Shown here: piece after piece, positions 52,732 through 59,890 of the stretch
Layout of the letters: each line of letters begins with the position of its first letter
Numbering within the stretch: the stretch's first letter is position 1
Assembly: GCA_964016885.1 (NCBI GenBank)
Contig: OZ024759.1
Coordinates: 25,358,001 to 25,422,000 of the forward strand
From: Eledone cirrhosa
Lineage: Eukaryota
Length of the DNA: 64,000 nt
Reading direction: 5' to 3'
Made by a program: the position numbers and the translations under genes
Notes under the pieces: model-generated
Database searches by the model: none
What the model was told of the DNA's origin: nothing
What the model saw: only the letters and a program-made list of their open reading frames with translations

Positions 52732-52935
52732 ATAATATATAAGATCAAAAGATGGTTAAATGAGTTCCATGTATTTTATTATGCGCATTTCGAAAACAAA
52801 TATAATCATGCAATAACATTTGTGTTTTCATCATGATGAAAACACAAATGTTATTGCATGATGATATTTGTTTTTGAAATGCGCATAATAAAATACATGG
52901 AACTCATTTAACCATCTTTTGAACTTATATATTAT
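52732..52935. repeat. Loop-less near-perfect palindrome (~100-bp arms) containing a hammerhead motif in each arm
   Basis: Axis at 52833/52834 (ttttcatca|tgatgaaaa). The right arm reads TGATGA-16-position stem II-GAAA-T GCGC A-TA-ATAAAATAC. Confidence 0.85.
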
Positions 52936-54102
52936 GTATACTCGAGTCCTACAAACTGAGTGCTTCTTATCCGATATCTGCATTGCTTTATTGTACTACA
53001 ATAAAACTCACCTCCTATATATATATATATATATATATATATATATATATATATATATATATATATATATATTTATATTTATATTATTATATGTGAATAT
53101 ATCTATATCTATAACCATAACTATATCTATCTATCTCTATATATATATATATATATTTAAATATACATATATGTGTGTGCGTCTGCGTGCGTGTGTGTAT
53201 GTGTGCAATATAACATTATAGAACATACAAATATATAGTTGAACACACGGTTTCACATGAAGAATGAAGAATATTGGACCAATATATATATATATATATA
53301 TATATATATATATATATATATACATACATATATAATCGAAGCAGGAACGAAGTGGTCTTATTGCATATGACAATTGTTGTCATATCGACCATAATAATGA
53401 TCAAGGCCCGACTTTACACCGACCTTTCATCATTGATATATATATATATATATATATATATATATACACACACACGCACACGCAGCTAACGCGCCCGCAC
53501 ACTCACAAATATAAAGTCACACTTATATAAACATAATTATATTGTACATTTTAAAATATAATTTTGTATATATATATACATATATATATATATATATATA
53601 TATATATATATATATATATACATATATATATATATATATATATATATATATATATATATATATATATATATATATATATATATATATATATATATTATAT
53701 ATATATTTATATGAGGTAAATATTTATATTATATTTTTTAATGTATTTTGAAAAATTGATTGAATTTTACTTGTTCTGCTTATCTTAATATATATATATA
53801 TATATATATATATATATATATATATATATATATATATATATAATATATATATATATATATAGAGAGAGAGAGACATTAAGGTTGATATATAATATTTATA
53901 TGGTATTAATAACCTCATTTCTCAGTGTTGTCTCTTCTTATACATAAAATGTATTAAAAATCTATATTTCTACTTCATATATGAGTCTAGAATATACATT
54001 TATATATGCGTGTATGTATACATTTATGATATGACTATAAATTGGTCACAAACATAAATAAATAGAAATGAGGAATAAAATATTTATGAAAATATATAAA
54101 TA

Positions 54103-54475
54103 TCCAACGATGGCTCCTAAAATCCAGACATACGTACATGTGCATATATATATATATATATATATATATATATATATATATATGCGAGTGTTCTACACAT
54201 CTAGGAATTATATATATATATATATGTATTTATAATTCTACATGCATGTAAAATTTTAAACAGTGATAACAAAGCAAACGACACAGTTATATATATATAT
54301 ATAACATATATATATAACATATAATCCTCCATTGAACTGTGTCGTTTGCTTTGTTATCACTGTTTTACATGCATGTAGAATTATATATACATATATATAT
54401 ATATAATTCCTAAATGTGAAGAACACTCGTATCTATATGCACATGTATATATGGATTTTAGGAGCCATCGTTGGA
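54103..54475. repeat. Fold-back inverted repeat (~140-185 bp arms, 46-bp spacer) in (TA)n-rich DNA
   Basis: tccaacgatggctcctaaaatcc...acgacacagtt / aactgtgtcgt...ggattttaggagccatcgttgga. Confidence 0.82.
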
Positions 54476-55437
54476 AATATATATATATATATATATATAT
54501 ATATATATATATATATATATGTATATATAAGTTAATTTAGAATAACTTGTTTTCAAATAGAACAATAGAACAACAAATGATTTGCAAAGGTTTTGTTGTT
54601 TCTTATAATTTTTTATAAATTCTGATGAATCCAATTAGTGGATTATATAATTAATAAGCAAATAATTAATTATATATCCTGTAAGATGGAAGAAACGTAC
54701 GTTTAATATAATATGATATAATCAATAGTATTTGGTCTTATATTTGATTATACATTCATATATACATACATACATGTATACATACATATATATATATATA
54801 TATATATATATATATATATATATATATATATATATATTTATATATATGTATATATATGTATATATATATACATATATATATATGTGTATATATATATATA
54901 TATATATATATATATATATATATATATATATATATATATATATATATATATATGTATATATATACATATATATATATATGTGTATATATATATATATATA
55001 TATATATATATATATATATATATATATATATATATATATATATATATATATATTCATATATATATATATATATTCATATATATATATATACATACATACA
55101 TAAACAGACACACACATTAAAATATCACAAATATATCACCTCTAATGATAGCCAACCACCCTAAAACCAGTTTCGATTTTTGATACAAGTCTTTCCAGTT
55201 TAAAATATTTTTAAATATATTAATATATTGATATTTATATAAAAAGCTTACAACAAATATTTTCAAAAGAAATTTACGTTAAATAATTTTCCAGTCATTA
55301 ACTTAATACCGAATAGCTTCATTATATCATTAAAAATGTGACAAATCTTTAAAAAATGTGGTATTTTAAAAATTAATTAATACCTGTTCGAAATATATAA
55401 TATATATGCATGATATCATATGTTTATATATATATAG

Positions 55438-55750
55438 AAAAAAAGATGAAATTGAAAATGCAACTGGAGCCTTATTTTGAAAAATATATATATATTTATT
55501 TGGTTCCTTTACCGGTTTCGCAGTTCTTCTGCTTTTCAAAAGTAGAGTTGAGATGGAGGGTCTGTGGTTTTTCTCACATCTGATGTGAGAAAAACCACAG
55601 ACCCTCCATCTGAACAGGCCTCCACAGACTCTCCATCTTAACTCTACTTTTGAAAAGCAGAAGAACTGCGAAACCGGTAAAGGAACCAAATAAAAATATA
55701 TATTTAAAAAAAAATAAGACTCCAGTTGCATTTTCGATTTCATCTTTTTT
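55438..55750. repeat. Fold-back of a Penelope-pLTR-like sequence with two opposed hammerheads
   Basis: Axis at 55581 (ctcacatc t gatgtgag). Hammerheads lie at 55506-55543 (-) and 55646-55684 (+). The right arm is also present at 59437-59580. Confidence 0.85.
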
Positions 55751-55838
55751 TTCTTTTTATACTTTCACTCGTGTAGGACACCCCGGTTATTTTTCATTTT
55801 GGAAAAAAACCTCACTTTCTAATATATATATATATATA

Positions 55839-57696: not shown

Positions 57697-59435
57697 AAGA
57701 TCTTTCTTTCCCTTATTACGAAGCATTTTCCCCCTACACATAAACGTAGTAAAATTTTTAATAGAAATACTATTAAAATTTCTTACTCTACGACTCCTAA
57801 CCTTGCACATAACATCACAGCTTCAAATTTAGCTAAACTACCTAGCCGTAGGAACACGTGCAACCCTGTAGTTAGTACTAACTGTAATTGTAGGAATCGG
57901 GTTGATTGCCCCCTATCCGGGAAATGCCTCTCTAGTAACATTGTCTACAAATGTAAGGTTGAAACACCCACGTCTCGTAGGGCCTACATAGGGTTAACCG
58001 CCAATAGATTCAAGTAGCGTCATGCATACCCATTCTTTTCGTTACCCTCTAAGAAGGAATATGACGTCACTTTCAGCTTATATCTGGAGTCTAAAAGACA
58101 ACCACACCCAATATACGTTACACTGGGAGATCCTAGCTAGGGCTAGATTGTATAACAGAAATAAAAGACCATGTGACCTCTGCGCCGCTGAGTCCCTGGA
58201 AATACTCTACGCCACAGACCACATCTTAAACAAAAAATCTGAGGCAATTTTGGCTTGTAAACATAAATTGCACAAAACTTTCCTGTATTACAGCCCCACG
58301 TTATACCCTAACGGATAGTACGATCTATACGTGGATATTTTACGTCTTGATGTGGTAGCTAAGTATATGTTTTGTTTATACCTTTACTTATTTGCATAGG
58401 TAAGTATATATTACCTGTATGTTTGTGAAGGTACGTATACTTTCTCGTACGTATATTTGATTGTATATGTTATGGCGTATAATTTTATATATTCTGGTAC
58501 ATATGGTTCGGTTTTGTGTATACGGGAGTTTTGCATCTGTGTGAGTATGCAGATTCGTACGTATGTAGGGTGTGTGTATAAGTGTACTTCATGTTTTGGT
58601 TGACTTACGTCTCCGAACATTTGTGTATTTACATGTAGGTATGTGTGTGCGCTTGTTATATACGTATTTATTTATTTATATACGTTTATTTACTTATTTA
58701 TTTATTTGTATACACGCACACACACACACACACACACACACACGTATTTATATGTGCGTGGTTTTGTATACCTATGGTAAGTGTTTTCGCGTATGCTTGT
58801 GTATGTACGTATTTGTATGCGTGTATGTATTTATTTAATTTCTATTACCTCTGTATTGTATTTATTTACTTTATTCTTAACTCTGAAGCGGAGATTCATT
58901 CGGTCTCCTAGTTAGAATTTTAGTCTACGACTTCTGCTATACCATTTACGTGGTTTTGTCTTTGCGTGCAATTGTTCTCCACGCTCCACATATGACGTAT
59001 TATCTTCGTTTTTTTCGTTCATTGCCAGAGAACGTCTCTATGAACCACATAAGAGAACATTAGTCTACGACCTCTTTTATACCATAAACGTGGTTCTGTC
59101 TTTGCGCGTAATTGTTTTTCACCGCTTCTATTAATTACGTATTATATTCGTTTTTTCCCGTTCTTTGCCAGGGAACGTTTCCACGAACCAAAGTATCGTC
59201 TCCCTGTCTTCCTCCGGTTGCAACATTTTTTGAAATATCCACTTCTGCGTTTACAGATTGACTTTGTTAGTTTCAGAAGATCCCGTTAAGGGTGAAAGCA
59301 GCGATTCTTTGCTTAAACTTTAATCTGTTATTTTAATAAATATTTGCTCTACGGTTCTTATATATTTGATATATATTTATCCTTATCGAGCCCTCTTTGG
59401 ATTTTAGTCTTCAAATTTATTATTATTACTATATA
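57697..59435 (+). mobile_element. Penelope-like retroelement remnant: RT thumb, GIY-YIG endonuclease (pseudogenised) and 3' pLTR-like sequence
   Basis: FLSLITKHFP/KIFNRNTIKISYS; CNCRNRVDCPLSGKCLSSNIVYKC...AYIGLTANRFK*; HSFR...TSLSAYIWSLK...WEIL...CDLC..E...LNKKSE...CKH (to 58318). Decayed hammerhead motifs lie at 58873-58918 and 59273-59310. Confidence 0.82.
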
Positions 59436-59472
59436 TATGTGAGAAAAACCACAGACCCTCCATCTCAACTCA

Positions 59473-59510
59473 CCTTTTGAAAAGCAGAAGAACTGCGAAA
59501 CCGGTAAAGG
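59473..59510 (+). ncRNA. Minimal hammerhead ribozyme motif with U3-A8 core variant
   Basis: CCTT-TTGAAAA-GCAG aagaa CTGC-GAAA-C CG G-TA-AAGG. All three stems close, stem III is the palindrome ACCGGT, and the triplet is GUA. Confidence 0.68.
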
Positions 59511-59798
59511 AACCAAATAAATATATATATTTAAAAAAAAAATAAGACTTCAGTTGCATTGTCGATTTCATCCCTTTTTCTTTATATATATATATATATA
59601 TATATATATATATATATATATATATATATATATATATATATATATATATATATAAATAAATAAATATATATAAATATATACTAATTTAAGGTATCAAAAC
59701 ATTTATATTATGTATGATACTTGCGTTTCTCAGTAGAAAAGTTTAATGGACATTTGTCCAGAGCATCAATAATTCAAATTTATAGAATATAGTGGTGG

Positions 59799-59890
59799 CT
59801 TCTACAGGACTAGAACTGTTTCATTCGTATGAAATCATTGGGAAATCCTGATGATTTCATACGAATGAAGCAGTTCTAGTCCTGTAGAAG
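59799..59890. repeat. Hairpin of a hammerhead-like pLTR fragment
   Basis: The arms give the consensus CTGATGA tTTC atac GAAt GAAAC agttcta GTC ctgtagaag. Single-arm relatives lie at ~36637-36700, 50175-50290 and 13310-13380 (-). Confidence 0.75.

Follow-up and report, generated by a model that had tools for sequence, protein, structure and literature searches.

Introduction

Insertions of endonuclease-bearing (EN+) Penelope-like elements (PLEs) have been described as units with two arms arranged head to head, a palindrome at the junction, a tail at one end and a microsatellite as target (PMC3846280, PMC8557442). The hammerhead ribozymes of metazoan PLEs are minimal, with a short helix I, a palindromic helix III that serves a dimer fold and, as in Schistosoma, a U3-A8 core variant; in Schistosoma, hammerhead pairs lie 100-700 bp apart on opposite strands (PMC4209133). 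The inverted repeats, the tails and the role of the hammerhead are stated to be open in PMC8557442. Here we analysed four fold-backs, named E1 to E4, in a stretch of 64,000 nucleotides (nt) from Eledone cirrhosa (assembly GCA_964016885.1, contig OZ024759.1, positions 25,358,001 to 25,422,000), referred to below as the window. These fold-backs are very probably stubs of PLEs, and we propose that they are minimal insertions, probably generated by twin priming at one cut in a (TA)n run, with short copies joined head to head.

Results

An original prediction, made from the letters of this stretch, had placed four palindromes in its last part. All four were recovered there:

52727..52940, unstranded, E1 palindrome: 107-nt arms, no spacer, 103/107 paired, axis 52833/52834
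55438..55751, unstranded, E2 palindrome: 1-nt centre at 55581, with 134 matches, 5 mismatches and 35 gap columns
55839..55974, unstranded, E3 palindrome: 60/61 paired, axis 55906/55907
59799..59890, unstranded, E4 palindrome: 40-nt arms, 39/40 paired, 12-nt spacer

Arm identity is 96-98% across the four elements. Most of the gap columns in E2 correspond to one duplication of ~27 nt in the right arm, and the 14-nt mismatched centre of E3 consists of two core copies placed back to back. The expectation that (TA)n borders each element on at least one side also held, since TA runs flank E1, E2 and E3 on both sides and E4 on the right side only. A one-sided extension of 60-110 nt, a feature absent from the original prediction, is present on every one of them. 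When the window was scanned for fold-backs with a spacer of up to 60 nt, skipping the satellite at 13.5-20 kb, six that are not microsatellites were detected, and E1 to E4 are four of these six. Fold-backs without a hammerhead were observed at 54103-54475 (the fifth fold-back, in which the spacer measures 46 nt and TA runs occur inside) and at 11096-11768 (an older inverted duplication with arms of ~335 nt and pieces resembling short interspersed elements, SINEs, at its ends).

The one-sided extensions and the other copies related to these elements in the window are the following:

52941..53015, + strand, E1 one-sided tail: ACTC..GAGT-GCT hairpin at its start (from 52940), (TA)n at its end
55752..55821, + strand, E2 one-sided tail: family-wide (depth to 55816), without the RCTC..GAGY hairpin
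55975..56039, + strand, E3 one-sided tail: between the family 3′ ends, ACTC..GAGT-GCT hairpin at 55979
59690..59798, − strand, left-side extension of E4: likely a diverged tail, outer limit uncertain
59437..59580, + strand, single tailless copy of an E2 arm: flanked by TA runs, 4-bp helix I
49049..49187, unstranded, inverted pair without shared sequence: reversed 59348-59433 head to head with 59289-59342
59274..59433, + strand, unrearranged relative of the 49049 copy: degenerate U.U-type hammerhead, tail with a GCTC..GAGC stem
36636..36697, + strand, single copy of the E4 family: core degenerate
50155..50295, + strand, single tailed copy of the E4 family: hairpin at 50229

In the inverted pair at 49049-49187, the reversed half corresponds to the tail of the 59274-59433 family and the other half to the adjoining upstream segment; 5 nt are missing between the two halves, both outer ends lie in (TA)n, and the identity with the unrearranged relative is 54/54 and 84/86. 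We also observed, at 50300-50410 (+), a copy cut at the base of helix II, in which the core is missing and a 7-bp local fold-back lies at the 5′ end; it continues with GAAA, helix III and the GUC triplet, and has TA runs on either side.

E2 and E3 were compared with sequencing data over 55380-56040, using four of the 19 listed runs, and this region was matched by 10996 contigs (X1) and 12666 reads (X17). E2 and E3 are very abundant families, present also in organisms B and C. The family copies mostly extend upstream beyond the E2 and E3 axes; 481 loose ends were counted at 55582, at the E2 axis, against a depth of ~720, and 484, 872 and 1015 near the E3 axis. The E3 family has two 3′ ends joined to TA runs, at 55974 (1336 reads) and 56036 (575 reads), which supports the predicted (TA)n target. 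In the E2 family an inner end is found near 55750 (one X6 contig listed) and the tail reaches ~55816, a less sharp picture than in E3. The segment between the two 3′ ends corresponds to the PLE tail; the tails of E1 and E4 are known from the window sequence alone. A 2.6-fold drop in depth over the E3 hammerhead was set aside, as it is confounded by divergence and by read ends that cluster at 55930, where a restriction site probably lies.

Evidence for a link to PLEs came from a truncated coding region and from related loci in other hosts. The coding region is an open reading frame (ORF) with reverse transcriptase (RT) and GIY-YIG nuclease parts:

57700..58285, + strand, C-terminal remnant of a PLE RT/GIY-YIG ORF: 5′-truncated, one stop, one frameshift

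This remnant was located by motif search; in tblastn it gave an E value of 3e-41, with the match beginning at 57625 and overlapping a SINE-like repeat. It lies ~990 nt from the next hammerhead motif and matches 151 of 199 candidate proteins, many of them near 705 aa. The homologues of ~705 aa carry an RT motif and a GIY-YIG-like end and, judged by eye, resemble Hydra-1_Ajap (Craig et al. supplement), a likeness that concerns the remnant and E1 to E4 at most indirectly. Pfam searches with 109 of the 264 window ORFs matched neither RT nor GIY-YIG, those with five full-length homologues matched neither an RT nor a nuclease family, and a homologue search using the distal piece of the remnant gave no match.

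Related loci were found in 13 cases and 12 were analysed (L018 was excluded). They contain 13 hammerhead matches, of which 7 run into (TA)n; all of the remaining 6 are followed by a tail hairpin, GCTC..GAGC and then RCY. The tails of E1, E3 and the E4 relative (50229) begin with ACTC..GAGT and then RCY, so that the two forms of the hairpin differ by a compensatory change at the outer pair. The pattern by itself occurs 7 times in the window against ~4 estimated by chance, and it is its position at the start of the tail that gives the hairpin its weight. Eight palindromes were found at the related loci and, after excluding five without a credible hammerhead, three hammerhead mini-palindromes remained, two of them clearly tailed on one side. 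Because ORF-bearing relatives share the hammerhead type and the mini-palindromes with the window elements, and the tail hairpin with E1, E3 and the E4 family, the assignment to PLEs is well supported, and together with the ORF remnant this bears out the Penelope-like origin that had been put forward. E1, E3 and E4 likely belong to the Hydra clade.

The contigs of these loci (L006-L017) are filed in bacterial genome bins; they are TA-rich and contain PLE ORFs, some of them complete and some partial, as well as nested stubs and large inverted copies, and their DNA likely represents animal host contamination of the bins. One of them (L014, 5787-5948) has a fold-back without a hammerhead within RT-coding sequence beside a TA run; inversions are therefore possible without the ribozyme. 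A pattern scan of viral contigs gave 0 matches and a search for viral loci found none, whereas the same kind of scan in metagenomes gave 5 matches in GC-rich, unrelated DNA that were judged to be chance.

The arms were then inspected for hammerhead motifs. None of E1 to E4 matched a first, strict descriptor. A looser one matched 5 of the 8 arms read outward, 0 of 8 read inward and 0 of 6 control arms, with 3-23 matches per 1000 shuffled versions of the matching arms; this descriptor was composed after the motifs had been seen, which makes the significance post hoc. Another loose descriptor, equally post hoc, gave 6 matches over 47-64 kb, 5 of which were E1 or E2 arms or copies. Among the Rfam matches listed (150 of 384, all 51 and all 15 in the respective searches, E1 not being searched alone) there was no hammerhead family, and these matches were sub-threshold and to hairpin or microRNA families only.

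A type I hammerhead pointing to the 3′ end is complete in E2 and in the E3 family and is cut in E1. E2 has complete minimal hammerheads with a U3-A8 core at 55539 (−) and 55650 (+), and these are the only two complete motifs in the eight arms. In E1, C3 has been lost from both arms together with the 5′ strand of helix I, helix III is palindromic, and the eight letters of the post-cleavage strand recur in the intact motif at 47075, where they form a helix I of 8 bp. E3 carries two substitutions in its right core and no helix I in its left arm; helix II is closed by a U.U pair and helix III is palindromic. In the family, the letters at 55908 and 55913 are those of an intact right core (506/529 and 608/612 first-mate-plus reads), and upstream letters seen in the reads supply a helix I of 4-5 bp. 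E4 is the weakest case of the four: no intact copy of the motif was found, GAAA has become GAAG in the right arm, the left arm lacks the start of the core, and although the family has the core, helix II and GAAA, no helix I was found. The loss of six motifs is due to the fold-back itself or to later mutation, and the corresponding arms are predicted to be inactive as ribozymes. Of the architecture that the original prediction ascribed to the four elements, the outward direction stands, as does, in E1 and E3, the palindromic helix III that had been given for three of them, but the motif is intact only in E2, and E4 has a changed GAAA and no helix I.

Folding of the monomer motifs gave weak structures (−6 to −12 kcal/mol, z −1.05 to +0.46), no better than shuffles. 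In the single E2 copy at 59437, helices I and II formed and helix III remained open, a modelled fold that would correspond to a dimer-type layout. A seemingly complete type I hammerhead was also observed outside any fold-back, at 47067-47132 (+); its helix I has 8 bp and its helix III is palindromic.

The axis of the fold-back falls at the core in three of the four elements of the window: at U4 of the core in E1, at C3 of both cores in E3 and within ~10 nt in E4. The axis of E2 precedes the right-arm core by 68 nt, close to the ~70 nt predicted for this fourth case, and the core of the left arm, which lacks the duplication, by 42 nt. Among palindromes from other hosts, the axis is within the core in L012 (5888-6089), 12 nt upstream in L007 (4597-4813), and ~55 nt upstream, with a spacer, in a second palindrome of L007 (5286-5631), so that one of three turns at the core. 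In 5 of 6 cross-axis joints of the E3 family the left arm ends between 2 nt downstream and ~8 nt upstream of C3, a count biased by a reference that itself ends at the axis and from which palindromes turning downstream of the core would escape; 4 of 8 listed X1 pieces span the E3 axis, with differing gaps. The E2 family has a hotspot at 55573-55583, where 27 contigs simply end in TA at 55579, a recurring junction is shared by eight contigs of X1 and one of X5, and the 59437 copy begins, ≤2 nt from the E2 axis position. Turning points thus differ between families and coincide with the core in many cases, though not in every one; a universal turn at the core could not be upheld, given the clustering of the E2 family ~68 nt upstream. 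The frequency of the axis at the core suggests a likely role of the hammerhead motif in the copying of the element. Two other readings of these positions were discarded: AG precedes the E2 and E3 turning points but without the pyrimidine tract of a splice acceptor, and a coding frame starting in the core meets stops soon after, as read by eye.

The joints across the axis were also classified for symmetry. Of 24, 15 were listed, and six that a palindromic reference renders ambiguous were left out (five "opposite strands" and one "goes back"). Of the 10 cross-axis joints counted, 9 show asymmetry and 4 resume 5-13 nt within the tail. The E4 arm with the shorter 3′ end seems to reach further at its 5′ end: the 12-nt spacer resembles the upstream sequence of the family in the direction of the right arm, with 8/11 matching letters versus 3/11 in the reverse direction.

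The surroundings are intron- and microsatellite-rich animal sequence. Exons of an intron-rich HSP70 gene (Pfam PF00012) lie at 26910-36385 and from 36950 onward (+), and the E4-family copy at 36636 is in an intron. Side observations include a 15-nt satellite at 13556-19936 with an inverted block at 15994-16986, and a SINE-like repeat in many copies, for example at 45690-45840, 51406-51532 and 57564-57699. A 90-nt hairpin element flanked by TA at 22105-22196 is presumably a miniature inverted-repeat transposable element derived from Tc1/mariner, and the segments at 45920-46140, 37245-37685 and 42411-42914 are ones that we take to be decayed pieces of retroelements without long terminal repeats (non-LTR), R4/Dong-like and RTE-like. 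At 58850-59260, two tandem units of ~137 nt (80% alike) were observed, with a degenerate hammerhead-like stretch near 58883; this segment lies between the ORF remnant and the motif at 59274 and may be the 3′ region of that element.

Discussion

Twin priming would account for E1 to E4 in four steps. The GIY-YIG nuclease of the element would cut both strands of a TA run, as an anole element does in vitro on AT-rich DNA (PMC11167929). One DNA end would then prime at an outer site of the RNA and give the tailed arm, while the other end would prime at an inner site and give the tailless arm. Both copies would read uncleaved RNA through the hammerhead and stop early, at the core for E1, E3 and E4 and ~68 nt upstream for E2; that the template was uncleaved is shown by the arms, which span the cleavage triplet. 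Finally, the two ends would be joined with little or no microhomology. Equal stops would lead to palindromes, and unequal stops to lopsided or non-overlapping inversions. The second case resembles the L1 twin priming attributed to Ostertag and Kazazian, in which two primers on one RNA reportedly produce an inversion whose halves do not overlap, together with a small deletion; the pair at 49049-49187 has this form. The second L1 primer is said to use chance internal matches, whereas a fixed second start site is proposed here, and mirror arms that overlap are common. Twin priming is favoured most clearly by the 49049-49187 pair, whose halves share nothing, and also by the asymmetric joints, by those that restart inside the tail and by the apparent mutual overhangs of the E4 arms; we regard it as the probable main route. 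The two 3′ ends of the E2 and E3 families in TA runs match the tail and the two RT start sites described for the anole element (PMC11167929). The palindromes are likely by-products, mostly with dead ribozymes.

As determinants of the stop, the 5′ end of the RNA or a helix I that a second RNA keeps in place within a double hammerhead may be considered. A bolder version, which we put forward as a long shot, is that the hammerhead is a two-fold symmetric scaffold for copying more than a cutter: the RNA would dimerize through the palindromic helix III into a double hammerhead, and a protein dimer would prime one cDNA (complementary DNA) at each (TA)n end. Both cDNAs would stop at the partner-held helix I just 5′ of C3, with the conserved tail hairpin setting the two start sites, and the products would be mirror-image stubs that turn at the core. 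If true, the scaffold would explain what PLE hammerheads do and how the inverted terminal repeats of these elements (pLTRs) arise.

The original prediction had favoured a snap-back at the folded ribozyme after reverse transcription from a (TA)n target. In the form considered here, a single cDNA with its primer at the tail end would halt close to the ribozyme, fold back on itself as template and terminate at an inner TA-like site. The exact symmetry of E1, E2, E3 and the L012 palindrome, the 4-letter self-complementary centre at the E3 axis and small local fold-backs at copy ends, such as that in the 50300 region, agree with this route, which is akin to the self-priming considered in the discussion of PMC3846280. 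However, it cannot yield the inverted pair at 49049-49187. In addition, the tailless arm of E4 seems to carry extra upstream family sequence, so that its arms would overhang each other, and single tailless copies, as at 59437, show that the inner end forms without any fold-back. The weak monomer folds also speak against it, and a strongly folded monomer is an unlikely cause of the stall, since the enzyme is already beyond helices II and III where the copies end. Snap-back was therefore not sustained as the main route, and we consider it unlikely for these elements. Some palindromes could instead have spread as ready-made, non-autonomous units, as suggested by the E2 junction at 55581 in eight X1 contigs (depth 7010/186330, ~4%) and one contig of organism B, and by the pieces that span the E3 axis. 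Yet these pieces differ in letters and gaps (3-12), the 27 contigs ending at 55579 without a fold-back indicate a general stop at this site, contig depth does not equal copy number, and the ribozyme is broken in six of the eight arms. Beyond that one recurring junction, most copies are not palindromic and centres vary; since the family reads mostly pass the axis, the separate class of palindromic elements that had been suggested is not supported, and we regard spread as ready-made units as improbable. Highly improbable is a late origin unrelated to retrotransposition, through repair of DNA or a fold-back during replication where TA runs are fragile, or an assembly artefact. Fold-backs without a hammerhead do occur at 54103-54475 and 11096-11768, and no listed piece bridges the whole 55380-56040 stretch, so that reads do not confirm this particular locus, but the outer ends coincide with the two 3′ ends of the family and the arms carry private substitutions relative to it (55453, 55470, 55862). 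Chimeric reads, which had been named as a possible source, are argued against because the E2 and E3 junction types recur in contigs and raw short reads from other samples, and the junction types are also found in other hosts.

Several points weigh against twin priming and against the assignments made here. The exactly symmetric centres of E1, E2 and E3 are what snap-back would produce, and Arkhipova 2013 prefers self-priming on an antisense template (PMC3846280). The E4 argument rests on 8/11 letters, and a deletion after insertion could account for the short right end of this element; the read joints, only 15 of 24 of which were displayed, do not show where the left arm ends on its far side; and inverted pairs tailless on both sides exist (L007, L014). 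The E1 and E4 families were compared within the window only. No parent ORF is tied directly to E1 to E4, the host genome having been outside the search, and no element in the part of the PMC8557442 supplement considered matches the four arm motifs. The E2 tail has no hairpin of the kind described, and E2 is accordingly not placed in a clade here.

Head-to-head copies, palindromic junctions, one-sided tails and opposite-strand hammerhead pairs are already published (PMC3846280, PMC8557442, PMC4209133). For the axis hotspot, the tail hairpin and PLE twin priming, no publication was found in the open-licence literature, and the hotspot, the hairpin and the signs of twin priming are apparently new details. 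The tail hairpin is a candidate nuclease or RT signal and offers a handle for finding stubs without an ORF.

Among described systems, the Hydra clade, which includes Hydra-1_Obim from Octopus, shares with the window elements the (TA)n preference and a hammerhead near the 3′ end (PMC8557442, Files S1 and S2). The (TA)n preference is common to Neptune and Naiad also and hence not diagnostic. By our own count, U.U-closed hammerheads occur in 14 of 25 Hydra families (PMC8557442 supplement), and helix II is closed likewise in E3 and E4. None of the Hydra hammerheads listed there matches E1 to E4 by eye, the U3-A8 core of E2 is not in that table, and the Hydra passages of PMC8557442 do not mention the tail hairpin. 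The short helix I, the palindromic helix III and the U3-A8 core of metazoan PLE hammerheads are found here as well; the relevant part of PMC4209133 maps no turning points, whereas here the junction often cuts the motif. In vitro work on the anole Poseidon element PAc (Frangieh et al. 2024, PMC11167929) describes cutting and extension of both strands, a tail delimited by two RT start sites, reverse transcription mainly from uncleaved RNA and a predicted dimer; this element belongs to another clade, and inverted products are not described in the portion of that work consulted. Non-LTR retrozymes (bioRxiv 10.64898/2026.07.22.740005) are, like E1 to E4, PLE-derived, without an ORF and with a type I hammerhead, but they form head-to-tail arrays with intact ribozymes, whereas the arms of E1 to E4 are inverted and their motifs mostly broken.

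The EN+ PLE unit is thus the closest counterpart: E1 to E4 are inverted, 5′-truncated, head-to-head copies flanked by (TA)n. They differ from the published unit in being only 90-310 nt long and without an ORF, in having tails of 62-75 nt instead of 30-40, and in that the turn clusters at the hammerhead core or at one site per family (PMC3846280, PMC8557442). E1 to E4 are ordinary debris of a known class of retroelements, and their value is that of a natural record of mechanism: with thousands of short, readable insertions in the host, turning points can be measured, and the products of twin priming and of snap-back can be counted against each other.

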